Source: a virus
Taxonomy: Duplodnaviria > Heunggongvirae > Uroviricota > Caudoviricetes
IMG/VR virus record: IMGVR_UViG_2585427970_000003
DNA length: 51,664 nt
Strand: one strand, 5' to 3'
Below are positions 1,659 to 15,754 of the stretch, one piece after another; the first letter of the stretch is position 1; every line of letters begins with the position of its first letter. The notes beneath the pieces are model-generated. The model was not told the origin of the DNA. It did not search any database and saw nothing but the letters and a program-made list of their open reading frames with translations. The translations under genes were made by a program, and so were the position numbers.

Positions 1659-4130
1659 TTAAGAATCAGCCTGACTCGGGATCAGTTTTTGCCAGATAAC
1701 TGAAACGTATTTTGCCTGGTAACGGGCGTCATCAAGTGCATTATGGCGCTCACCTTCGAATGGAATAGCCGTTCTGGCATCGAAGTCTATGGCTTTCCCC
1801 AGCTCAACGATTGTGCGTACATCGCGATCGTTGTAGTAACGCCACGGGCAGGGGATCCCCTGCCGTTCGTATGAACGGCGCAAAATCGTGTTGTCGAAGT
1901 TGGCTCCATTTCCCCAAACCTGAACAAAAAATTCACCGGAGTTTTCGTCGATAAATTCTCGCAATTGTAACAGTGCATCATCTAACGGGATTTCATCGGT
2001 CATAATGGCAGATTGCGCTTCGCGTGATTGCTTAAGCCACCATTTAATGGTGTCCCGATCAATGACTCCGCCAGCAGTTTCCAGATCGATAGTCTTACTA
2101 AATTCCGGTCCCATATCTCCGGTTTGCGGATCGAAAAATATTGCACCTATTGAGATGATCGGGGCATCAGGATTTTTTCCCATGGTTTCAAGGTCGATCA
2201 TTAGATGGTCACACGTCCTGCTGGTGGATGTGATTTCGTGATGACCGTTCACCTTAATTGGGTGATCTGCCGTCTCGCCAGTTTCATTATCGCTATTGTG
2301 ATGCTGATTGCCGCCAGTGTTCTCCTTGTGTGGATGTTCAGCGCCTTCCATTTCCTCCGGATCATCTTCCTGAACTTCAACCTGATACTCTTCATCGAAT
2401 GTTTCTTGGTATGTTGCGTCGCCCATCACCGCGCCACAATCAGGGCAGTTGCCGCCGCCGGTCTGACCGCAGGCGGTGCAGACTTTTTCCACTTCCTGTT
2501 GCGCTACTGGTTCAGGCTGTTTCGTTTCTGGCTCGTTTTGTAACGCATTTGGACTGTTTTGTTCCGCTTTTTGGTAGTTCCGTTCCGATTCATGCTGGTT
2601 CTGGTTCACAGAATCGCGGGTCTGGAGCCCCTTAACCCATTTCGGATCATTCGGGTCACTAATCCCTTCAACAAATTCACCACGTGATGCAGCAAGCAAC
2701 TTATCGGCGTCAGGCTGGCTGATATTGGCTGCCTGCATAATTTTGTTTACTTCGTCAGCGGTAACTTTTATCGGCTCTGGTTGTTCTGAATCTTCAGCGG
2801 TATCTACATTTTGCGGTAAGCCCGTGTATGTGCCATTTTTTCGGGCAAAATATTCTTCTTTTGTGATTTCAGTGGCGCCAGCAGCCAGTGCCTTATCCAG
2901 ACCAGAGAGTTTGTTTGCGCGACCGTATTTTTCTCCGTCCTTATCTGCGAAGAGGAAATAGAACGGCCCCTCACGCTCTACAGATGGTTCAGCTTCCGGC
3001 GCGGTTTCATTTTTTGGGATATCAGATACCTCAGTTTCCACTGCATCAGTTTGTGTTTCTGATGACTGGAGAACATCAACAGTGCCCAGGTCTGTTTCTT
3101 CATTCTCAAACACGCCCTTTGTCGTCAGGTATTCGCAGATATATTTGTTCAGTGCTACGGGATCTTTGTGAATGTCGATCGGACGCTCACGGACAAGGCC
3201 AAAAATAGTTTGGCGGTCGTAGCGAAGGGCATCAGGCTGTTTGCGCATTGATGCCGAGATACGCTTCCAGTCTTCGCGGTCGTTGTCGATAACTTCTTTT
3301 TTTGCCCAGCGATGGATGCTGCCGTCAATGTTTCCGGCATCCACATCACTAGGCCAGAGAGCGTAGGCCAGTTCGTCATCCAGTGTTTTCCATGTCTGCT
3401 TGTATTCGCGATGAATGGCAGCAATGACCGGGCTGATTTTTCCTGTTGAATTTTCAGTGTACTGTTGATTGGCTCTGGCGCGGGCGAGATCAACAACAGA
3501 CGTGTATTTTCCGGTTTCCTTGCGTTCACCTTCGCGACGTTTTTTCCAGATGCGCATCTCTGCCTGAATTTCGGGCCATTTAGCACCAGGAATACATTTA
3601 TGCTTAACCCACCCAATGGCGTGCAACTTAAGCTCCGGATACATGGCGTTAACTTCTGGCATTTTCATCAACGCTTCAACGATATGTCCGTCGAATGTTG
3701 CCATGTCTTCCTGCAACAATTCCTGTGCGCTAATAACCATATCAACGGTGATGTTTTCACATGTGTCGAACTTAACCATGACAGCGTTCTGTACTTCAGG
3801 GGCCAGCTTGTCAAAAGTGACGTTCATCGGATCGGATTCAGTCTCAACCGGGACAAAAGAAGCAGACTCCTCATCCCAGCGGTTTTCCTGCATATATTCA
3901 GCATCCCATGAATCGAGGGCAGGGCGGGGTATGCCAGGTTTATCCTCGCAGACAATAAATTTATAAGCGCAGTCCTGAGCAGCCGGATAATGTTCCAGGA
4001 ATTGCCAGTGAAATTTTGCTCGAGCACGGCGTTCGTCGCCAGCTTCAATGGCTGTGGCTACAGCCACAGCGCCTTCTTCCCTTGTTGCCAGTTCGTCAGG
4101 AATAGCGGCGCAAATAAAGACTTTACTCAT
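1659..4130 (-). CDS. RecE-like N-terminal region fused to a DnaQ-type (DEDDh) 3'-5' exonuclease domain
   Basis: C-terminal motifs DLETMG (Exo I), WGNGANFD (Exo II), HNALDDARY (Exo III); CxxC...CxxC cluster (CTACGQTGGGNCPDCG). Start chosen at MSKVF (4130) behind GAGG; ORF extends in frame to 4166. Probably the intact form of the gene truncated in K-12 Qin (ydfE), from memory. Confidence 0.7.
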   Translation of the reverse strand: MSKVFICAAIPDELATREEGAVAVATAIEAGDERRARAKFHWQFLEHYPAAQDCAYKFIVCEDKPGIPRPALDSWDAEYMQENRWDEESASFVPVETESDPMNVTFDKLAPEVQNAVMVKFDTCENITVDMVISAQELLQEDMATFDGHIVEALMKMPEVNAMYPELKLHAIGWVKHKCIPGAKWPEIQAEMRIWKKRREGERKETGKYTSVVDLARARANQQYTENSTGKISPVIAAIHREYKQTWKTLDDELAYALWPSDVDAGNIDGSIHRWAKKEVIDNDREDWKRISASMRKQPDALRYDRQTIFGLVRERPIDIHKDPVALNKYICEYLTTKGVFENEETDLGTVDVLQSSETQTDAVETEVSDIPKNETAPEAEPSVEREGPFYFLFADKDGEKYGRANKLSGLDKALAAGATEITKEEYFARKNGTYTGLPQNVDTAEDSEQPEPIKVTADEVNKIMQAANISQPDADKLLAASRGEFVEGISDPNDPKWVKGLQTRDSVNQNQHESERNYQKAEQNSPNALQNEPETKQPEPVAQQEVEKVCTACGQTGGGNCPDCGAVMGDATYQETFDEEYQVEVQEDDPEEMEGAEHPHKENTGGNQHHNSDNETGETADHPIKVNGHHEITSTSRTCDHLMIDLETMGKNPDAPIISIGAIFFDPQTGDMGPEFSKTIDLETAGGVIDRDTIKWWLKQSREAQSAIMTDEIPLDDALLQLREFIDENSGEFFVQVWGNGANFDNTILRRSYERQGIPCPWRYYNDRDVRTIVELGKAIDFDARTAIPFEGERHNALDDARYQAKYVSVIWQKLIPSQADS

Positions 4131-4222
4131 TTGTTTTAACCTCATGACAGATTTAAGGATGAACAAATCCCTGCCATTGCTGGCATATAAGAATGAAACC
4201 GGATATTTATTACGGAACTGTT

Positions 4223-4414
4223 TTAAAGACCTGCCGGGATTTCGATATTATCCTGGTGAATAACTTTATCGACCGGGTAACAGTTACCGGGAATTTTCTG
4301 TTCGGTTGCTGCAGTCATACACTCCTGCATTGTCCTGTGAACACTGACTGCAATATCAACTGGCTCTCCGGAAACAAGAAAAACTGTCAGAACAAGCACA
4401 AATGCTGAATTCAT
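4223..4414 (-). CDS. ydfD: YdfD small membrane lysis protein (63 aa)
   Basis: MNSAFVLVLTVFLVSGEP... N-terminal TM segment; length and position downstream of dicB match Qin ydfD; start overlaps dicB stop (ATGA). Confidence 0.7.
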   Translation of the reverse strand: MNSAFVLVLTVFLVSGEPVDIAVSVHRTMQECMTAATEQKIPGNCYPVDKVIHQDNIEIPAGL

Positions 4415-6588: not shown

Positions 6589-7093
6589 ACAGGCTCGTGA
6601 GGCTCTGGATGCCTGGATATGTCGACCAGGAATGACACAGGAGCAGGCGACGATATTAATCACTGAAGCATTCTGGGCTTTGAAAGAGCGCCCGAACATC
6701 GATGTTCAGCGTGTCACATATGAAGGTGGCGCGATTGATCAGCGAGCGCTTGGCGTTAATCGAGTGAAGATATTTGAACGCTGGAAGGCTATCGACACCA
6801 GGGATAAGCGTGAAAAGTTCACGGCGCTAGTGCCTGCAATTATGGAGGCTATCCGGATTAATGATTTCAGGTTGTATCGTGAAATTACTGACGGAAAAAG
6901 CATCACGTGCATGATCGCCGGGTTAAACAAAGAATATGGCGATGTGGTGGAGTCCGGACTGCTTTTTGCTGATCCTGCCGTAGTGGATCGTGAAACTGAC
7001 GAACTTATAGAAAAAGCAATTGCTTTCAAACTTGCGTATCGACAGCAATACCAACAAAAAGCTGGATGGAATTATGAGCCTTCTTTTTGCTGA
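6572..7093 (+). CDS. YdaT-like protein (CII-position gene)
   Basis: 173 aa; shares the MKI..E......AW...KIF.RW...DT......ALVPAI pattern recalled from Rac YdaT; directly follows the cro-like gene. Confidence 0.5.
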   Translation: MKITPEQAREALDAWICRPGMTQEQATILITEAFWALKERPNIDVQRVTYEGGAIDQRALGVNRVKIFERWKAIDTRDKREKFTALVPAIMEAIRINDFRLYREITDGKSITCMIAGLNKEYGDVVESGLLFADPAVVDRETDELIEKAIAFKLAYRQQYQQKAGWNYEPSFC

Positions 7094-8039
7094 ACGCCCA
7101 CTGGTTATAAACACGCAGCTGGCAATGAAAATTGGCTTAAACGAAGCCATTGTTTTGCAACAACTGCACTACTGGTTGAGAGATACCAACTCCGGCATGG
7201 AATGTGATGGTGTTCGCTGGATTTATAACACAACGGAACAATGGCTGGAACAGTTCCCATTCTGGTCAGAGTCAACGTTAAAGCGCGCGTTTGCAAGTCT
7301 GAAAACGCTGGGGCTTTTGCGTTGTGAAAAGCTCAATAAATCAAAGCGCGATATGACCAATTTCTACACGATCAACTATGGGAGCGAGCTTTTAGATGGT
7401 GGCAAATTGAGCGAATCCATCGGTTCAAAATGCGCCGCTCCATCAGGTCAAAATGACACGATGGAAGAGGTCAAAATGAAACGCTCCATTGGTTCAAAAC
7501 GACCCAATGTCATCGGGTCAAAATGGCCTGATGATCTTACAGAGAATACAACAGAGATTACTACAGAGAATAAAAACACTTTTCGTCCGGAAGCTTCGCA
7601 ACCGGACCCGCAGACGACTGAACAGGATTTTTTAACCCGGAACTCCGACGCGGTTGTGTTTAGTGCGAAAAAACGCCAGTGGGGTAGCAGGGAGGATTTG
7701 GCGTGTGCGCAGTGGATCTGGGGGCGGATCGTGGGTCTCTACGAACAGGCAGCCAGTGATGATGGCGAGATCATGCGACCAAAAGAGCCTAACTGGACTG
7801 CCTGGGCCAATGACGTGCGCACAATGCGGATGCTGGATGGCAGAAGCCACAGACAAATTTGCGAAATGTTTGGTCGGGTTCAGCGAGATCCATTCTGGGT
7901 AAAAAACATCATGAGCCCGTCAAAGCTCCGCGAAAAATGGGACGAACTGGTCATCCGCCTGGGACGTTCACCTGTACAGCGTTGTGTTAATCATATTTCT
8001 GAACCGGATACAGAAATTCCGCCTGGTTTCAGAGGATAA
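7074..8039 (+). CDS. Replication initiator (O-like), iterons within coding sequence
   Basis: Central region encodes repeated IGSK peptides from five DNA iterons; ORF track starts at 7020 but ATG 7074 gives minimal overlap with upstream gene. Confidence 0.6.
   Translation: MSLLFAERPLVINTQLAMKIGLNEAIVLQQLHYWLRDTNSGMECDGVRWIYNTTEQWLEQFPFWSESTLKRAFASLKTLGLLRCEKLNKSKRDMTNFYTINYGSELLDGGKLSESIGSKCAAPSGQNDTMEEVKMKRSIGSKRPNVIGSKWPDDLTENTTEITTENKNTFRPEASQPDPQTTEQDFLTRNSDAVVFSAKKRQWGSREDLACAQWIWGRIVGLYEQAASDDGEIMRPKEPNWTAWANDVRTMRMLDGRSHRQICEMFGRVQRDPFWVKNIMSPSKLREKWDELVIRLGRSPVQRCVNHISEPDTEIPPGFRG
7416..7574. repeat. Putative replication origin: five ~23-bp-spaced iterons plus 3x ACAGAGA(A/T)TA repeats
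   Basis: Iterons with core GGT(T)CAAAA at 7422, 7446, 7469, 7491, 7515; followed by ACAGAGAATA (7541), ACAGAGATTA (7553), ACAGAGAATA (7565). Confidence 0.6.
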
Positions 8040-8079
8040 GTGTTGATTTCAGGTCATGAGGTAATTTTAAGGGGGACTT

Positions 8080-8502
8080 GTGGCAAAAGTTTTTACACAA
8101 GAAGAGCGGGAAAAAATTAAATGGCAGGTGGTGGAACTCGTGCGCCAGAGCGGCCGTGAGACGTTACGGCAACTGGAAGCTAAAACAGGTGCGACTAGAT
8201 ATCTGATGAGCGTTCTTGCCAGAGAGCTGGTAGCCAGTGGCGATGTATACAACTCCGGCTACGGGTTATTCCCCTCTGAACAGGCGCGTAAGGACTGGCA
8301 AAACGCCCGCAAAAAACTCTCGAGGGCAAAGGTGAAGAAACCTGCTGTGGTTGATCCGGACCTTATCTGGTCATCACCTGACGGAGAAATACGTCGCTAC
8401 GACAGTCGCCTAAACATAATCTGTCGCGAGTGCCGGAAGAGCGAAGTTATGCAGCGCATACTGGCTTTCTATCAGGGTAATTTTCAGGACGTGGCGCAGT
8501 GA
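8080..8502 (+). CDS. Hypothetical protein (140 aa)
   Basis: Intact ORF with no motif I can assign; stop overlaps the start of the methyltransferase remnant. Confidence 0.4.
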   Translation: MAKVFTQEEREKIKWQVVELVRQSGRETLRQLEAKTGATRYLMSVLARELVASGDVYNSGYGLFPSEQARKDWQNARKKLSRAKVKKPAVVDPDLIWSSPDGEIRRYDSRLNIICRECRKSEVMQRILAFYQGNFQDVAQ

Positions 8503-8945
8503 GTGCACCGGCAACCATTCTTGATATGTGCTGTGGCAGCCGCATGTTCTGGTTCGATAAGTCTGACGAACGGGCGATATTCAGCGATATCAGAAAAGAA
8601 GGATACACATTACGCAATGGGAGACGCTTGATTATCAGCCCTGACATTATCGCAGATTTTCGTGCATTATCATTTGCAGACGCATCTTTTTCGATGGTTG
8701 TATTAGACCCTCCGCATCTTGAGAGTGTTGGTGATAACGCCTGGATGGGAAAGAAATATGGACGGCTGAATAAAGATGCCTGGCGTGATGATTCGCGACA
8801 GAGATTTAAAGAAGCCTTTCGGGTGTTGAGGCCGCACGGCGTTCTGATTTTTTAATGGAATGAAACGCAAATACCGGTAAGCCAGATTCTGGCACTGACA
8901 GACAGAAAACCTGTTATCTGTCAACGAACAGGGAAAAAACGATAA
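8499..8945 (+). pseudogene. SAM-dependent amino-methyltransferase with premature in-frame TAA
   Basis: Motif I-like LDMCCGSRM and motif IV DPPH; TAA at 8853..8855 followed by 29 sense codons in the same frame (WNETQIPVSQILALTDRKPVICQRTGKKR) to TAA at 8943. Confidence 0.55.
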
Positions 8946-9117
8946 AACCCACTGGATTATTTTTATGAAAGAGGCATCCAGTGAGTAGATTCGTAAGGCT
9001 ACAGATACGTATATCTGAATAATTAAATTCAGTTCTGTAAATAAAATTTAATCCTTAACCGGATGGATTTCTGCACCCTCAGAACATCAGGAGGCCGCCC
9101 GAAAGGGCGGTAGTGAA

Positions 9118-9753
9118 ATGCGAAAGTTCAAAATTATTATTGAAACGGGAATAGCTGGTGGAGATTTTGAGGATGTATTCGAAGTGGACGATGACGCAAC
9201 ACCTGAGGAAATTCATGACGGAGCATAAGAAATTTTCTTTAACTACTGCAATTACTCATACCACGAAATAAAAGACGATGAGGAAGAACAAAGTGGCTGA
9301 TTTTTGTTCAGCTAAATATAACATCAGTTTTGAAGAGCGGGATGAACTATTAATGGACTATGGTGAGTTACGCGGTGGAAGTGCTGCTGATGTCGAATCC
9401 TAGCGTGATGACTATGAAGCGGGAAAAACTCCGGTCGAAGCATATTGTGATGAGTGGGGCGATGAATGAGCGAGATTAATTATCAGGAAGGGCATGAAAC
9501 GGCGGGGCAAGCAAAACCAGTGGCATGGCGATATCGCTACGTGAAAAAAGGCGTTACGGACTTTCAGGGGAAGTAGTGGTCTGGTGACTGGAAATATGTA
9601 CCGAAAAAAGAGGATTGTAACGACAGGCCGAACTATCAAATTCAGGCCTTATTCACTGCCTCACCAGTCCCAGTTACATCAGAAGAACTGGTTAAAGCTG
9701 TGCACTTTTATGAACAACTAAAACGCGAAAATCCACCAACATCCGGCAACTAG
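9118..9753 (+). pseudogene. Decayed acidic-protein gene(s): in-frame TAA/TAG stops and a frame change
   Basis: ORF from ATG 9118 has TAA at 9226 then continues to TGA 9298; ORF from GTG 9293 has in-frame TAG at 9401, ends 9469; ORF from ATG 9466 has in-frame TAG at 9574, ends 9753. Confidence 0.5.
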
Positions 9754-10007
9754 ATTAATGGATTAACTATGTCGGTTAAACGACCAGCCAACTGAAAAAG
9801 CGGAAACCTGATTACAGGTTGCCAGATAAGGCAATGAGCTACCTGGCGCGGAACGGACTGATAAGTATGGGGAATGTTTTACGATGAACCTTTAGACTAA
9901 AGAGTTTGTAACGCTATGTAAGTGATTTTTTCTGGTTTAGATATTTATATGTCCGGCCAAATTGAGGTGTGTTTAAATGTAATTGCACATTGATTGTAGG
10001 AGGAATA

Positions 10008-10187
10008 ATGAAAAACGCATTGCAGTTTTTGTTTGTTGCGTTCTGGTTGTTCGCATCATGTATGCCCATCATCTTCACAGCAAGGTATATGGAAAAAGTT
10101 GATGTTTTGATATTAATATTTGGATATATAAATGCCCTTTTTTTAGGGGTGTTCATGGCGGTCATGTGCATTGAATACTGGCGGTAA
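10008..10187 (+). CDS. Small hydrophobic membrane protein (59 aa, two predicted TM helices)
   Basis: MKNALQFLFVAFWLFASCMPIIFTARYMEKVDVLILIFGYINALFLGVFMAVMCIEYWR; AGGAGG at 9998..10003, 4 nt before ATG; AT-rich surroundings. Confidence 0.5.
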   Translation: MKNALQFLFVAFWLFASCMPIIFTARYMEKVDVLILIFGYINALFLGVFMAVMCIEYWR

Positions 10188-10521
10188 ATACAGCGAACTC
10201 CATTGGTTTAGTTGGATATTTACTGTGCTGGACAAAAACGGTTTGCGGGGAAATCTTAGTTAAGTAGAATGACTGCGGGTGCTTGAGGCTATCTGCCTCG
10301 GGCATGGACACCAACGGCAGATAGAGAAAAGCCCCAGTTAACATTACGCGTCCTGCAAGACGCTTAACATTAATCTGAGGCCAATTTCATGCTAGACACA
10401 TGTAGGTTAGCCTCTTACGTGCCGAAAGGCACGGAGAAGCAGGCTATTGTTAACACCAAGCTGTAATGTCCCCTTTGAACCATTCTAAAATGTCCCCAGA
10501 CAATTCTCTGGGGGATTTTTC

Positions 10522-11835
10522 ATGATCAAAGAGACTGTTACGATGAGTCATAAGGAACTCCACCGACTTCAGATTATTCAGGAACAAGCTGCGGCACGCA
10601 TTGGCATTTCTATTCGGCAGGTTAAACGTCTGGTGCAACGGTATAGAAATGAAGGGCCTTCTGGTCTGGTTTCCCACCGACGTGGAAAGCGTCCTAATAA
10701 TTCCTTTTCTACTGAATTCAGAGCAACAGTAATTTCACTCCTCAAAGGCCGTTACGCTGATTTTGGACCTACGTTTGCGTGCGAAAAATTGCGCGAGATA
10801 CACGGTTTATCTTTATCCGTTGAAACTCTCAGAAAGTGGATGATAGAAGAGGGGTTATGGCGTGAACGCCGTCGTAAAATTGCCCGTATATATCAACGCC
10901 GCATGCGACGACCATCTTACGGTGAACTGATCCAGATTGATGGCTCACCTCATGACTGGTTTGAAAATCGAGGCCCCAGATGTACACTGATCGTTTTCAT
11001 TGATGATGCCACCAGTGCGTTGATGGCGTTGCGTTTTGTGCCTGCTGAAACAACCCGGGCTTACATGGAAACCCTCCGGGGTTACCTTAATGATCATGGC
11101 GTACCGCTCGCTCTCTACTCTGATAGACACAGTATATTCAGGGTAAATAACCCAGAGCGGGAAGGTGAGCTGACCCAGTTCACTCGTGCGATAAAGACAC
11201 TGGGCATCGAGCCAATCCATGCCAACAGCCCGCAGGCAAAAGGGCGGGTAGAGCGCGCCAATCAGACACTACAGGACAGGCTGGTCAAAGAAATGCGGCT
11301 TCAGAATATCAGTGATATTGAAACAGCAAATGCATGGTTGCCGACCTTTATTGAAGCCTATAACAACCGGTTCGCTACGTCGCCTCGTACTACTGATAAT
11401 GCTCATCTTGATGTGCACCATTCTGAAGAGGAACTGGGTTATATCTTCAGCCTACAGGCGAAGCGCGTTCTGTCTAAAAATCTCACTTTCCAGTACAAAA
11501 GCAGTGCGTTTCAGGTACGCAGTGAGGGCCGGGGATATCGACTTAGGCATTCGGTTGTTACTGTATGCGAGAACTTTGACGGTGAAATTAACGTTCTGTA
11601 TGACGGGAAAGCGCTGGGCTGGGAAAAGTATGTTGATGGCCCGGAGCCTATACCACTGGATGATGAAAAGAGTGTCCATGAACGAGTGGATAATGCCCGT
11701 ATTGATTTACGCTCAAAATACTATGTTAAACCTAAAGCTGACCATCCCTGGCTTACGCGCCGAACGCAAAGTCATCAGCAAGTTAAGCCCCCGAAGTTAC
11801 CTAAAAAGAAGCCTGATCCCGATAAAAAAGATTGA
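10522..11835 (+). CDS. DDE-type transposase / integrase-core-domain protein (IS481/ISNCY-like)
   Basis: 437 aa; N-terminal HTH, then catalytic-type motifs IQIDGS ... LYSDRHSIF ... KGRVERANQ, basic C-terminal tail. Element ends not resolved. Confidence 0.65.
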   Translation: MIKETVTMSHKELHRLQIIQEQAAARIGISIRQVKRLVQRYRNEGPSGLVSHRRGKRPNNSFSTEFRATVISLLKGRYADFGPTFACEKLREIHGLSLSVETLRKWMIEEGLWRERRRKIARIYQRRMRRPSYGELIQIDGSPHDWFENRGPRCTLIVFIDDATSALMALRFVPAETTRAYMETLRGYLNDHGVPLALYSDRHSIFRVNNPEREGELTQFTRAIKTLGIEPIHANSPQAKGRVERANQTLQDRLVKEMRLQNISDIETANAWLPTFIEAYNNRFATSPRTTDNAHLDVHHSEEELGYIFSLQAKRVLSKNLTFQYKSSAFQVRSEGRGYRLRHSVVTVCENFDGEINVLYDGKALGWEKYVDGPEPIPLDDEKSVHERVDNARIDLRSKYYVKPKADHPWLTRRTQSHQQVKPPKLPKKKPDPDKKD

Positions 11836-12271
11836 AACCAAGATCGATTCGGTTGAGTGCATATCCATTCATAGGGTAGATTCTTAAGTCGCGTTTCTGG
11901 TGTTCATTTTCGGGTGGTTTGTTACTTGTTTTACCGGGGATATGCCAGAAACGCGCTGAGTCAGTCTGGGCGGTGCGCGTAATGAGGCGTTATGGTAAAT
12001 AGCCTATGCTAATGTCCGCTAAGAGCAAGAAGCGGAAGTTGGCAGTTTTGTGGACTGTCCCCACAAAAGTGACTACAGAAATAGTTGCAATTCATAATTG
12101 ATCATGGGTTGTCAGTTAAACTCGTGGCGATTTAAATAGACTAATTGGGAGTGCGTCCATTACTTATATCTTGTAATGTTAACTATCAGAAATGATACAA
12201 AGATAATATGTCTTTAAAGAAAAGGCTGATGGCGAAAAGTGGCCCGATGAGGGCCACAATACGGCTGTCAC

Positions 12272-12604
12272 TTAGACGTAAATATCAATGGTGCCAGCGG
12301 TATTTGTATCGTCTTTTTTCTCTTCTTTTTTATCAGGCTGAACTGTCGCGTCTTCATTCTTTTTCTCTGCCTGCTGCCTTAACAACTGCTCCAGTTGAGC
12401 CCAGAGGCTTTCAATTTGCTTCTGTACCAATGCAGCCATTTCTTTTTTCTGCTGTGTCGTCATCCCCTCTTCCGATGAGATTTTCCCAAGCTTTTCAGTC
12501 AGCACCTGAATTTGTCTTGTGATTTTGGCTATTTCTGATGTTCCTTCCGGGGCGGAGTTGTTTGAAATAACGGTTGAGGTATTTCCCTGAATTGTGACAG
12601 ACAT
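12272..12604 (-). CDS. flxA: FlxA
   Basis: 110-aa MSVTIQGNTSTVISNNSAPEGTSEIAKITRQIQVLTEKLGK...; preceded by a sigma-28 consensus promoter. Confidence 0.8.
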   Translation of the reverse strand: MSVTIQGNTSTVISNNSAPEGTSEIAKITRQIQVLTEKLGKISSEEGMTTQQKKEMAALVQKQIESLWAQLEQLLRQQAEKKNEDATVQPDKKEEKKDDTNTAGTIDIYV

Positions 12605-12627
12605 AGATTTCTCCTTTTAAAAAAGCA

Positions 12628-12654
12628 CTATCGGCATGCACAAAAAAATCTTTA
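12628..12654 (-). promoter_or_regulatory. Sigma-28 (FliA) promoter for flxA
   Basis: Minus-strand TAAAGATT-N11-GCCGATAG versus consensus TAAAGTTT-N11-GCCGATAA, about 25 nt upstream of the flxA start. Confidence 0.7.
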
Positions 12655-12806
12655 ATCGTATTTCTTGTGTCATTAATTGTTTGATGTTCAGATTGTTTTC
12701 CTCGCGGGCTGGCGCGCCTCAGAAAGTAAAGCTTGTTGACAGGGGTAAACGTTCGGCAATAATTTTCTGCCGCATGCGGGTGTTGCATAAAACGTGTTAC
12801 GTTCCT

Positions 12807-13112
12807 TTATCGACAGGTCAGGTCACCGCTCACCCGCCGACGAGAAAGCAACACTGACATGCTAAAGCAAAAAATAGATGAATAAGTTGAGTTGTGCATA
12901 TGTAGCCTGACCGTCACAAAGTATATGGTGTCTGTACCAGTAAGATGATGGCCGGACTCTTTAAAAACGAGCTGACCTGCACAATACAGGATGGACTTAG
13001 CAATGGCTGCTCCTGGCACAAAGCGGACAGTGATCACCGTTCTTACGACTACTTTCTGACTTCCTTCGTGACTTGCCCTAAGCATGTTGTAGTGCGATAC
13101 TTGTAATGACAT
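12807..13112 (-). CDS. YdfV-like ORF (101 aa)
   Basis: Length and position between flxA and relB match the K-12 ydfV annotation; no recognisable motifs, may be non-coding. Confidence 0.25.
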   Translation of the reverse strand: MSLQVSHYNMLRASHEGSQKVVVRTVITVRFVPGAAIAKSILYCAGQLVFKESGHHLTGTDTIYFVTVRLHMHNSTYSSIFCFSMSVLLSRRRVSGDLTCR

Positions 13113-13124
13113 TTGTAATTACAA
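13101..13124. promoter_or_regulatory. relBE operator (relO-like palindrome)
   Basis: TTGTAATGACAT followed by perfect palindrome TTGTAATTACAA (13113..13124), just upstream of the relB start. Confidence 0.6.
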
Positions 13125-13136
13125 GAGGTGTAAGAC

Positions 13137-13376
13137 ATGGGTAGCATTAACCTGCGTATTGACGATGAACTTAAAGCGCGTTCTTACGCCGCGCTTGAAA
13201 AAATGGGTGTAACTCCTTCTGAAGCGCTTCGTCTCATGCTCGAGTATATCGCTGACAATGAACGCTTGCCGTTCAAACAGACACTCCTGAGTGATGAAGA
13301 TGCTGAACTTGTGGAGATAGTGAAAGAACGGCTTCGTAATCCTAAGCCAGTACGTGTGACGCTGGATGAACTCTGA
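13137..13376 (+). CDS. relB: RelB antitoxin
   Basis: 79 aa MGSINLRIDDELKARSYAALEKMGVTPSEALRLMLEYIADNERLPFK... Confidence 0.9.
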   Translation: MGSINLRIDDELKARSYAALEKMGVTPSEALRLMLEYIADNERLPFKQTLLSDEDAELVEIVKERLRNPKPVRVTLDEL

Positions 13377-13663
13377 TGGCGTATTTTCTGGATTTTGACG
13401 AGCGGGCACTAAAGGAATGGCGAAAGCTGGGCTCGACGGTACGTGAACAGTTGAAAAAGAAGCTGGTTGAAGTACTTGAGTCACCCCGGATTGAAGCAAA
13501 CAAGCTCCGTGGTATGCCTGATTGTTACAAGATTAAGCTCCGGTCTTCAGGCTATCGCCTTGTATACCAGGTTATAGACGAGAAAGTTGTCGTTTTCGTG
13601 ATTTCTGTTGGGAAAAGAGAACGCTCGGAAGTATATAGCGAGGCGGTCAAACGCATTCTCTGA
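13376..13663 (+). CDS. relE: RelE mRNA interferase toxin
   Basis: 95 aa MAYFLDFDERALKEWRKLGSTVREQLKKKLVEVLESPRIEANKLRGM...; start overlaps relB stop (TGATG). Confidence 0.9.
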   Translation: MAYFLDFDERALKEWRKLGSTVREQLKKKLVEVLESPRIEANKLRGMPDCYKIKLRSSGYRLVYQVIDEKVVVFVISVGKRERSEVYSEAVKRIL

Positions 13664-13734
13664 ACCAAAGCATGACATCTCTGTTTCGCACCGAAGGTGA
13701 CACTTCTGCTTTGCGTTGACAGGAGAAGCAGGCT

Positions 13735-13890
13735 ATGAAGCAGCAAAAGGCGATGTTAATCGCCCTGATCGTCATCTGTTTAACCGTCATAGTGACGGCA
13801 CTGGTAACGAGGAAAGACCTCTGCGAGGTACGAATCCGAACCGGCCAGACGGAGGTCGCTGTCTTCACAGCTTACGAACCTGAGGAGTAA
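13735..13890 (+). CDS. hokD: HokD (RelF) Hok-family membrane toxin
   Basis: Manual translation MKQQKAMLIALIVICLTVIVTALVTRKDLCEVRIRTGQTEVAVFTAYEPEE (51 aa, below ORF-track cutoff). Confidence 0.85.
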   Translation: MKQQKAMLIALIVICLTVIVTALVTRKDLCEVRIRTGQTEVAVFTAYEPEE

Positions 13891-13958
13891 GAGACCCGGC
13901 GGGGGAGAAATCCCTCGCCACCTCTGATGTGGCAGGCATCCTCAACGCACCCGCACTT

Positions 13959-13990
13959 AACCCGCTTCGGCGGGTTTTTGTTTTTATTTT
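13959..13990 (+). terminator. Intrinsic terminator after hokD
   Basis: AACCCGC-TTCG-GCGGGTT hairpin followed by T-run. Confidence 0.6.
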
Positions 13991-14106
13991 CAACGCGTTT
14001 GAAGTTCTGGACGGTGCCGGAATAGAATCAAAAATACTTAAGTAGCGCGCAGGGATAAGAGGGATGGTCCCTTAAAGGGGAGAGCTAATTATCCGGAAGG
14101 ATTCTG

Positions 14107-14358
14107 ATGATGAACATCGAAGAACTGCGTAAAATTTTTTGTGAAGATGGCCTCTATGCTGTGTGCGTTGAAAATGGAAATCTTGTTAGTCATTACCGCA
14201 TTATGTGTTTGCGAAAGAATGGGGCTGCGTTAATTAATTTTGTGGATGCTCGGGTCACGGACGGATTTATCTTGCGCGAAGGTGAGTTTGTCACTTCATT
14301 ACAGGCATTGAAAGAGATCGGAATAAAAGCTGGCTTTTCTGCTTTTTCAGGAGAATAA
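14107..14358 (+). CDS. rem: Rem
   Basis: 83 aa MMNIEELRKIFCEDGLYAVCVENGNLVSHYRIMCLRKNGAALINF... Confidence 0.7.
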   Translation: MMNIEELRKIFCEDGLYAVCVENGNLVSHYRIMCLRKNGAALINFVDARVTDGFILREGEFVTSLQALKEIGIKAGFSAFSGE

Positions 14359-14424
14359 ACTCATCTACAATCTTGCGCGGGGCTGAACTCCCGCTGAGTA
14401 ACACCGTGCCACCGGAGAAAACCG

Positions 14425-14703
14425 ATGGCACGCAACGCAAAATATTACAATTCTGATAATTCGCCCGTTCTTGCCTGCACGCACGGGCGGTATTCTCACG
14501 CATTCAAGTCTGAATGGTTCCAGCACCCTCCATGCACTGCAGAACAGGCCGAATGGCTGATTCATTCTTACCGCAGGCGCGGGTTCGAGGTTAAGAAAGC
14601 TCTCAGTCTCGACTATCGGCACTGGATAATCTCTGTCAGGCTGCCTTATTCCGAACGCCCACCACGTGCGTCCCGCACTTTCCAGCAACGGATCTGGAGG
14701 TAA
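14425..14703 (+). CDS. Hypothetical protein (92 aa)
   Basis: ORF with ATG start; overlaps the start of the ydfU-like ORF in a different frame. Confidence 0.35.
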   Translation: MARNAKYYNSDNSPVLACTHGRYSHAFKSEWFQHPPCTAEQAEWLIHSYRRRGFEVKKALSLDYRHWIISVRLPYSERPPRASRTFQQRIWR

Positions 14704-15754
14704 CGTGCGGGTATTACTTAGACCTGTTCTGGTGCCTGAGCTTGGGCTGGTGGTCCTTAAGCCGGGCCGTGAATCCATACAGATATTTCATAATCCTCGA
14801 GTGCTGGTGGAACCGGAACCAAAAAGCATGCGTAATCTGCCATCCGGAGTCGTTCCTGCCGTTCGCCAGCCGCTGGCGGAAGACAAAACATTGCTGCCGT
14901 TTTTTAGTAACGAACGGGTGATTCGTGCTGCTGGCGGCGTTGGCGCATTGTCCGACTGGCTATTACGTCATGTTACATCCTGCCAGTGGCCTAATGGCGA
15001 TTACCATCACACTGAAACAGTCATTCACCGTTATGGTACCGGCGCAATGGTGTTGTGCTGGCACTGCGACAACCAACTGCGTGACCAGACATCGGAATCA
15101 CTGGAGCTGCTTGCTCAACAAAATCTGACAGCATGGGTGATTGACGTCATCCGTCACGCAATAAGCGGTACGCAGGAGCGGGAATTATCTTTGGCTGAAT
15201 TATCCTGGTGGGCGGTCTGCAATCAGGTGGTGGATGCACTACCTGAGGCTGTATCGCGTCGTTCGCTGGGATTACCAGCGGAAAAAATCTGCTCGGTGTA
15301 CCGCGAAAGCGACATCGTACCGGGAGAGCAGACCGCCACCAGCATATTGAAACAACGCACAAAAAATCTTGCACCGTTGCCTTACGCCCACCAGCAACAA
15401 AAATCACCACAGGAAAAGACGGTGGTAAGCATCACCGTTGATCCAGAGTCTCCGGAATCTTTCATGAAGCTGCCTAAACGTCGCCGCTGGGTTAAGGAGA
15501 AATACACACGTTGGGTTAAGACACAGCCGTGTGCTTGCTGCGGTATGCCAGCCGACGATCCGCATCATCTGATTGGTCACGGGCAGGGCGGAATGGGAAC
15601 AAAAGCACATGATCTCTTTGTGTTGCCTTTGTGCAGAAAGCATCACAACGAGCTGCATACGGATACAGTGGCATTTGAAGATAAGTATGGCTCCCAACTG
15701 GAGCTGATATTTCGTTTTATCGATCGCGCGCTGGCAATTGGCGTACTGGCGTAA
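14666..15754 (+). CDS. ydfU: YdfU-like protein (DUF968-type, Cys/His-rich C-terminus)
   Basis: 362-aa ORF beginning at GTG; C-terminal CACCGMPADDPHHLIGHG...CRKHHNELH cluster; immediately upstream of Q. Confidence 0.6.
   Translation: MRPALSSNGSGGNVRVLLRPVLVPELGLVVLKPGRESIQIFHNPRVLVEPEPKSMRNLPSGVVPAVRQPLAEDKTLLPFFSNERVIRAAGGVGALSDWLLRHVTSCQWPNGDYHHTETVIHRYGTGAMVLCWHCDNQLRDQTSESLELLAQQNLTAWVIDVIRHAISGTQERELSLAELSWWAVCNQVVDALPEAVSRRSLGLPAEKICSVYRESDIVPGEQTATSILKQRTKNLAPLPYAHQQQKSPQEKTVVSITVDPESPESFMKLPKRRRWVKEKYTRWVKTQPCACCGMPADDPHHLIGHGQGGMGTKAHDLFVLPLCRKHHNELHTDTVAFEDKYGSQLELIFRFIDRALAIGVLA

Follow-up and report, generated by a model that had tools for sequence, protein, structure and literature searches.

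The viral stretch IMGVR_UViG_2585427970_000003 (Caudoviricetes; 51,664 nucleotides, analysed as a whole and hereafter called the window) encodes a DDE transposase, tnp, at 10522-11835. We consider it very likely that tnp belongs to a 3.3-kb cargo transposon of the IS1202 family of insertion sequences (IS), ISEsa1 clade, which occupies 10448-13721 in hokD of a Qin-like prophage and prefers the start sites of hok and pnd genes. The comparisons below demonstrate its ends, the target-site duplication (TSD), the empty site, oriented insertion at the hok start, re-use of the target, independent insertions and a variable cargo between the arms. A first-pass annotation, made from the sequence alone, had described tnp as a transposase gene with no recognisable terminal inverted repeats. 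This does not hold: the left repeat (IRL) begins at 10448, the right repeat (IRR) ends at 13721 and a 15-bp duplication abuts both. The element and its target comprise the following features.

10448-13721, plus strand: whole transposon, 3274 bp; the canonical copy measures 3301 bp, tnp having a 27-bp in-frame deletion here
10277-10448, plus strand: hok leader and sok antitoxin region, orphaned and outside the element (Rfam RF01794, sok)
10433-10447, no strand: TSD, left copy, GGAGAAGCAGGCTAT, adjoining IRL
10448-10497, plus strand: IRL, TGTTAACACCAAGCTGTAATGTCCCC, with an inner AATGTCCCC repeat 24 nt further in
10522-11835, plus strand: tnp, 437 aa, ISEsa1-like IS1202-family DDE enzyme (open reading frame (ORF) list, NCBIfam, Pfam, RefSeq)
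11836-12041, plus strand: conserved non-coding tail of the tnp module, 206 bp, ending in a hairpin TCCGCT-N10-AGCGGA at 12015-12036
13696-13721, minus strand: IRR, reverse complement TGTCAACGCAAAGCAGAAGTGTCACC, with an inner repeat 24 nt further in
13722-13736, no strand: TSD, right copy, GGAGAAGCAGGCTAT, adjoining IRR
13735-13890, plus strand: coding sequence (CDS) of hokD (relF), the other half of the split target, now 3' of relBE (Pfam PF01848 HOK_GEF, E=1e-23)

Terminal repeats, target duplication and transposase

The left end was defined by comparing window 10200-12300 with plasmid copies (L001-L008) and loci of species-representative genomes (L009-L087). It reads TGTTAACACC... from 10448, 74 bp 5' of the tnp ATG, and is sharp at this position in ~25 independent copies or contexts. 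Two more distant relatives are helpful for the right end. A Hahella genome harbours a 1449-bp relative (62% amino acid identity) in at least 11 identical copies, and a metagenome-assembled genome of Rhabdochlamydiaceae a 1467-bp relative (about 50%) in nine; the IRL of both is close to that in the window, and every copy shows clean TGT...ACA inverted repeats and a perfect 15-16-bp duplication. The Hahella ends (IRL TGTTAGCCCAAAGCTGTAATGTCCCC, IRR reverse complement TGTCAACCCAATTCTAAAATGTCCCC) each contain two AATGTCCCC-type repeats 24 nt apart. The left end in the window is nearly identical to the Hahella one, so that a matching right end, ...GTTGACA, is expected.

The right end of the element, ...GCGTTGACA, is located at 13721, 1886 bp after the tnp stop codon and past flxA, ydfV, relB and relE; window 13696-13737 reads ...GGTGACACTTCTGCTTTGCGTTGACA followed directly by GGAGAAGCAGGCTATG. 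IRR (13696-13721) matches IRL (10448-10473) at 19 of 26 positions with TGT...ACA tips, and it is the sole inverted match to IRL at 19/26 or better in the whole 51.6-kb window. Within 9000-15000, GGAGAAGCAGGCTAT in turn is the sole direct repeat that matches exactly over 15 nt or more, and its copies are flush with both ends. Its 15 bp span the hokD Shine-Dalgarno (SD) sequence up to the AT of its ATG.

The first-pass annotation found neither inverted repeats nor a duplication within about 300 bp on either side of the gene. This is correct for the right side, but on the left the IRL starts inside that zone; the terminal repeats were missed because the search kept too close to the gene. Its alternative proposal, namely ends lying further out and including the upstream hairpins, applies to the distant right end but not to the left end near the gene, and the hairpins are no part of the element: they are the hok leader and sok of the target. 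Clear ends with a target duplication, the observation which the annotation had set against itself, thus exist for this transposase element.

A direct 8-mer reported in the same place, TGTCCCCA, is indeed in direct orientation, at 10491 and 12056 rather than at about 10499 and 12058. The copy at 12056-12063 lies just beyond the boundary between transposase module and cargo described below and shares the orientation of both IRL repeats; at the corresponding position L020 contains a similar ACTGCCC. Chance or a remnant sequence could account for this copy. L020 also contains an Rfam isrO match (RF01397, gathering level; 2837-2950, minus strand) which runs antisense across the first 24 nt of IRL, and the isrO family may include sequence of such transposon ends. 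A 12-nt perfect inverted repeat at 10336/12173 was rejected as a pair of ends, its left arm lying in the hok leader and being present at the empty site, and is regarded as a chance match.

The ORF list confirms the reading frame of tnp, and its annotation as a DDE or integrase-core transposase is well founded. With 456 bits the protein clearly exceeds the cut-off of 250 for NCBIfam NF033594 'ISNCY family transposase', and Pfam reports N-terminal helix-turn-helix (HTH) domains (HTH_28/29/32) together with a weak rve_3 match. RefSeq labels identical and near-identical copies, including those on plasmids, as 'IS1202-like element ISEsa1 family transposase'. The characteristics of the IS1202 family are present: a DDE transposase with N-terminal HTH (NF033594, Pfam, alignment of the core), imperfect repeats of ~24-26 bp with TGT...ACA, and a TSD of a length typical for a subgroup (3-6, 15-17 or 27-28 bp), 15 bp in the window. 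Seven further elements, besides the Hahella and Rhabdochlamydiaceae copies, have a TSD of 15-16 bp. A composite transposon would hold its cargo between two IS copies; here a single transposase gene is found, and a bare 26-bp IRR stands beside relE. A simple IS would consist of one ORF in 1.3-2 kb, and the element has 3274 bp, four passenger genes and relatives of up to 12.8 kb. It is a transporter IS or small transposon and not a simple IS.

The window transposase lacks ESINRHITQ, residues 20-28 of the 446-aa form, due to the 27-bp in-frame deletion in its N-terminal HTH region. There is close to an even chance that the window copy is a dead fossil, once mobile and now fixed in Qin-like prophages because this 9-aa deletion inactivates the transposase, which would be compatible with the structure proposed here. 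Favouring this, the deletion sets the window copy apart from all plasmid copies, a further-decayed version is present in K-12 (see below), and the median per E. coli genome is one place. On the other hand the reading frame is intact, the DDE core aligns to the Hahella and Rhabdochlamydiaceae proteins with no gaps and no stops, and both ends and the TSD are perfect; moreover an undeleted copy of 3301 bp exists in the Qin context (L019), and a full-length transposase could act in trans. The word 'decayed', one option of the first-pass annotation, applies to the window copy only mildly.

Insertion at the start of hok and pnd genes

The full-length RF01794 match at 10277-10448 (104 bits, E=1e-23) stops at the insertion point. 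In E. coli AHM9C61I (L090) this region continues without a break into the hokD CDS. Locus 2902-3547 there corresponds to window 9801-10447 and locus 3532-4311 to window 13721-14500, hence the flanks are joined; their overlap of 16 locus positions spans one single copy of the 15-bp sequence. Some E. coli genomes match window 9900-10447 only and have an annotated hokD directly after it. With both flanks joined around one copy of the 15 bp as query, an uninterrupted hokD-type locus was found in 4033 of 5426 complete E. coli genomes, paralogous prophage hok loci being counted, while in occupied or K-12-type genomes the matches start at query base 186, the first duplicated base. The comparison with the empty site in related loci, as proposed by the first-pass annotation, thus reveals that the empty site lacks the whole of 10448-13721. 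Plasmid matches to 11877-12041 alone (H101-H104) were dismissed as empty sites; they are remnants truncated by IS26. Just 5' of the hok leader lies a 72-aa hydrophobic ORF (9969-10187, plus strand) with no Pfam match.

These data are best explained by the following course of events. A staggered 15-bp cut in hokD led to duplication of the stretch from the SD to the AT. The insertion split hokD such that the promoter, the mok/sok leader and the sok gene remained on the left (10277-10447) and the CDS with regenerated SD and ATG on the right, directly 3' of relBE, which yields the relB-relE-hokD arrangement. Judging from the anatomy, relBE, reading out through IRR, would become the upstream transcription unit of hokD, and the hok promoter would now be aimed into tnp. 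Since the hok CDS is parted from its promoter and the mok leader while sok stays intact, the insertion is likely non-lethal. The underlying DDE chemistry may well be copy-out-paste-in via a circle, by analogy with the family member ISKpn21.

The full element is found with 99.3-99.8% identity on plasmids of Enterobacter asburiae, E. roggenkampii, E. cloacae, E. kobei, Salmonella enterica and E. coli. Full-length copies in other replicons differ from the window copy by the 27-bp gap and ~0.1% substitutions. Counting this gap the plasmid copies are 99% identical to the window, while their flanks are merely 51-58% identical. Four full copies were inspected closely.

L095: Enterobacter asburiae IncF plasmid, 3301 bp, TSD GGAGAAGAAGGCCAT
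L094: Salmonella IncI plasmid with a pnd-type hok, 3301 bp, TSD TGGAGGGGCTATGAT
L097: E. coli IncK plasmid, 3305 bp, TSD TGGAGGGGCTGCGATG
L019: Shigella chromosome, Qin site, without the 27-bp deletion, 3301 bp, TSD as in the window

In all four, IRL and IRR lie at corresponding positions, IRR is followed immediately by a Hok/Gef CDS, and each copy has a perfect duplication of its own. Because the elements are ~99% identical while the flanks share only 51-58%, each with a perfect duplication of its own, the plasmid and window copies are independent insertions into diverged members of the hok/pnd family, with an identical position in relation to the start codon.

Alternatively, ends and duplication could be real but the recurrent hok site might reflect inheritance and recombination of one ancient hok::transposon junction. 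Many plasmid copies do have common flanks (L007, L010, L011, L014, L015), flanks are rearranged in L016 and L023, and homologous recombination between hok paralogues and element arms is plausible. We nevertheless regard this scenario as very unlikely. It does not fit the near identity of the copies within strongly diverged hok and pnd flanks, and recombination would not regenerate perfect duplications of the local sequence such as GGAGAAGCAGGCTAT, GGAGAAGAAGGCCAT, GGAGAAGTCAGCTAT, TGGAGGGGCTATGAT and TGGAGGGGCTGCGATG. Moreover the tandem arrangement IRR-15 nt-IRL seen in L096 and L024 represents a duplicated target that was struck again.

In 6 of 20 species-representative loci, as in the window, a full-length Rfam sok match extends to the last base ahead of IRL. 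In the tandems the spacer between IRR and IRL comprises 15 nt (L096) and 10 nt (L024), which means that the regenerated target was hit again. In those hok and pnd targets that were inspected for it, a GCC-GNAA-GGC hairpin is located just 5' of the duplicated 15 bp. Non-hok sites are found as well: L040 from Scandinavium has a perfect 15-bp TSD, CATTAAGCTGCAAAT, and L080 a TSD matching at 13 of 15 positions. The targeting is therefore no absolute rule, and the clade has a strong preference for the start position of hok and pnd.

Two arrangements were noted in more distant relatives. In Hahella two identical IS copies stand in tandem (L029:2929-5843), separated by a 17-nt spacer of target duplication. 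A Massilia relative (L058-L065, L069; 45% identical) lies beside REP-like palindromes, GGGTGGGCAC...GTGCCCACC, which suggests another target preference within the family.

Variable cargo and the relBEF operon of K-12

From left to right the element consists of IRL, tnp with its 206-bp tail, a variable cargo, relB-relE and IRR. In the window the part following the tail contains four genes.

12272-12604, minus strand: flxA, cargo (Pfam PF14282 FlxA, E=2e-14; RefSeq annotation of the identical K-12 region)
12807-13112, minus strand: ydfV, cargo (ORF list; no Pfam match; name from the 100%-identical K-12 stretch)
13137-13376, plus strand: relB antitoxin, cargo / right arm (Pfam PF04221 RelB, E=1e-32)
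13376-13663, plus strand: relE toxin, cargo / right arm (Pfam PF05016, E=2e-13), reading outward to IRR and hokD

The relE-IRR junction is conserved in the window and in L024, L049, L080, L092 and L093. An element of 12,843 bp on a Phytobacter plasmid carries ncrYCBA, chrBA and other genes followed by relBE and has a perfect TSD, GGAGAAGTCAGCTAT. One of 6,093 bp on an IncHI2 plasmid contains IS110, cytochrome b, a CDF transporter and relBE, again with a perfect TSD, GGAGAAGAAGGCCAT. The Scandinavium element L040 (4,275 bp) has TacA/GNAT, GrpB and a hexapeptide acetyltransferase in place of relBE.

Sequence common to copies with different neighbours stops at ~12026-12041. Since the same arms enclose differing cargo, the apparent right end at ~12041 is the boundary between the conserved transposase module and the cargo. 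This position is close to what has been catalogued for ISEsa1, with 1609 bp, a TIR (terminal inverted repeat) of 15/22, a transposase of 439 aa and no TSD in several examples; the same source assigns it to a 'no TSD' subgroup of its own (Harmer & Hall 2023, PMC10132070, Table 7). Counted from 10448, 1609 bp lead to 12056, near the module boundary. These values and the end of shared sequence at ~12026-12041 would speak for an ordinary 1.6-kb ISEsa1 IS (10448 to ~12041-12056) with weak repeats and no TSD, flxA-relBE being an unrelated neighbour, but this reading is hardly credible: no inverted-repeat partner or duplication fits at ~12041-12056, perfect 15-16-bp duplications in seven elements occur only with the distal IRR, the empty site removes all 3.27 kb of 10448-13721 and not 1.6 kb, and the entire 3.3-kb unit is ~99% identical in unrelated hok loci. 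Based on the length given in that table, the catalogued ISEsa1 length probably represents the transposase module without the true right end.

A vestigial proximal IRR was also looked for at the boundary. The best local alignments, at 12034-12050 and at equivalent positions in two other elements, score no better than shuffles. By eye, the module end GAGAAGCGGAC and the hok target GAGAAGCAGGC have seven identical bases. Further arrangements were noted around this boundary. A flxA-ydfV' segment (window 12010-13024; L088, L089) occurs elsewhere on the chromosome, beside paoD and a '4-fold beta flower protein' gene and without tnp or relBE; the homology begins at 12010, inside the module-ending hairpin, and a hotspot of recombination or the edge of a cassette may lie here. 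L021, L023, L024 and L037 have insertions of ~0.8-1.4 kb within the non-coding tail of the tnp module. For L023 the tail alignments have 29 nt in common (window 11972-12000), pointing to an insertion accompanied by a long duplication. Small Edwardsiella plasmids (H215/H216) carry flxA-ydfV-relBE up to IRR (window ~11952-13722) with 99% identity and no transposase.

E. coli K-12 MG1655 corresponds to the window minus a clean 4,799-bp deletion of 6852-11650 and is 100% identical to window 11651-15000. K-12 keeps IRR, the right TSD copy and relBE-hokD, and has lost the hok leader, the left TSD copy, IRL and 376 tnp codons; the deletion also takes phage replication and accessory genes. The annotated K-12 gene ydfW is the C-terminus of the transposase, and the ydfX/ydfW junction is the deletion scar. 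By alignment, the window thus represents the undeleted ancestor of the K-12 arrangement, and K-12 holds a remnant of the same insertion. With IRL, the left duplication and most of tnp deleted, K-12 no longer reveals the transposon origin. The insertion explains the rise of the classic K-12 relB-relE-hokD ('relBEF') operon. According to the published accounts found, relBE integrated into hokD from plasmids, and no vehicle is named (PMC6379469). In the searchable literature we found no description of the transposon form, its ends, the duplication or the hok targeting.

Weight of the evidence and relation to known systems

Some observations weigh against a site-preferring cargo transposon at 10448-13721. 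The inverted repeats are imperfect (19/26), and a number of left flanks belong to loci other than hok (L008, L012, L020, L022, L026, L040, L080). Activity is deduced from the distribution of the copies. Nine N-terminal HTH residues are absent from the window copy, which may have lost self-mobility. Finally, the constant start of the cargo at ~12026-12041 lacks an explanation.

The IS family is already known. As far as we searched the literature, the transposon with a toxin-antitoxin (TA) right arm, the 15-bp duplication, the preference for the hok start and the explanation of relBEF are new. A much-studied TA locus is thereby given a concrete origin: relBE, flxA and ydfV reached Qin as transposon cargo, and hokD thereby lost its own regulation. 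The 'no duplication' anomaly of ISEsa1 is removed, the true right end revealing 15-16 bp as in the plain-IS relatives. Beside the known dif sites, hok start sites represent a second target-hunting behaviour in the IS1202 family. On plasmids of Klebsiella, Enterobacter and Phytobacter, the cargo between the fixed arms includes operons for resistance to nickel and chromate. Being a DDE transposon that inserts in one orientation at a preferred 15-bp target, the element might also find use as a laboratory tool or as a model for studying target selection.

Tentatively, and with somewhat less than even confidence, we propose that ISEsa1-type elements are dedicated transposons which swap one TA system for another at hok/pnd type I toxin genes. 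The element would recognise the conserved translation-initiation region of these genes and cut the toxin CDS from its promoter and mok leader; with the sok antidote left in place the insertion would be survivable, and the element would install its own type II module, relBE, reading into hok. If true, this process would have left the textbook relBEF operon of K-12 as a fossil, and ISEsa1 would form a 'no-TSD' subgroup only because its right end had been set, wrongly, at the module-cargo boundary.

The catalogued ISEsa1 is a close relative, as indicated by the RefSeq naming, the transposase length (437/446 aa here, 439 aa there) and the ~1.6-kb module, which fits 1609 bp. In contrast to its table entry in PMC10132070, the right end here lies 1.7 kb further out, the repeats match at 19/26, the TSD has 15-16 bp and passenger genes are present. 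The relBEF locus of the K-12 Qin prophage is the same DNA as in the window and differs by the loss of IRL, the left duplication and most of tnp. ISTde1 and ISCARN62/63 (16-17 bp) resemble the element in TGT...ACA tips, imperfect repeats of ~26 bp, a single DDE transposase with HTH and a TSD of ~15-17 bp. The relatives in Hahella and Rhabdochlamydiaceae, with ~1.45 kb, belong to this plain IS type. In the enterobacterial clade 1.7-11 kb of cargo separate the module from IRR, and the target preference is marked.

With the 'site hunters' of dif/pdif, ISAjo2, ISAba32 and ISKpn21, the element shares the family, an oriented and target-specific insertion, an IRL beside a defined sequence and tandem re-insertion. 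ISKpn21 is a transporter IS with a passenger ORF, for which copy-out-paste-in through a circle has been reported (10.1101/2022.12.17.520857). However, elements of the dif-targeting subgroup insert 5-6 bp from the XerC side with a TSD of 3-6 bp. This does not apply here, as the TSD has 15-16 bp and the flank consists of hok leader and sok, although no scan for dif motifs was made. ISAjo2, ISAba32 and ISKpn21 insert 5 bp from an XerC/XerD site with a 3-6-bp TSD, while the element described here inserts at the hok translation-initiation region with a TSD of 15-16 bp and, unlike them, includes a complete type II TA operon in its cargo.

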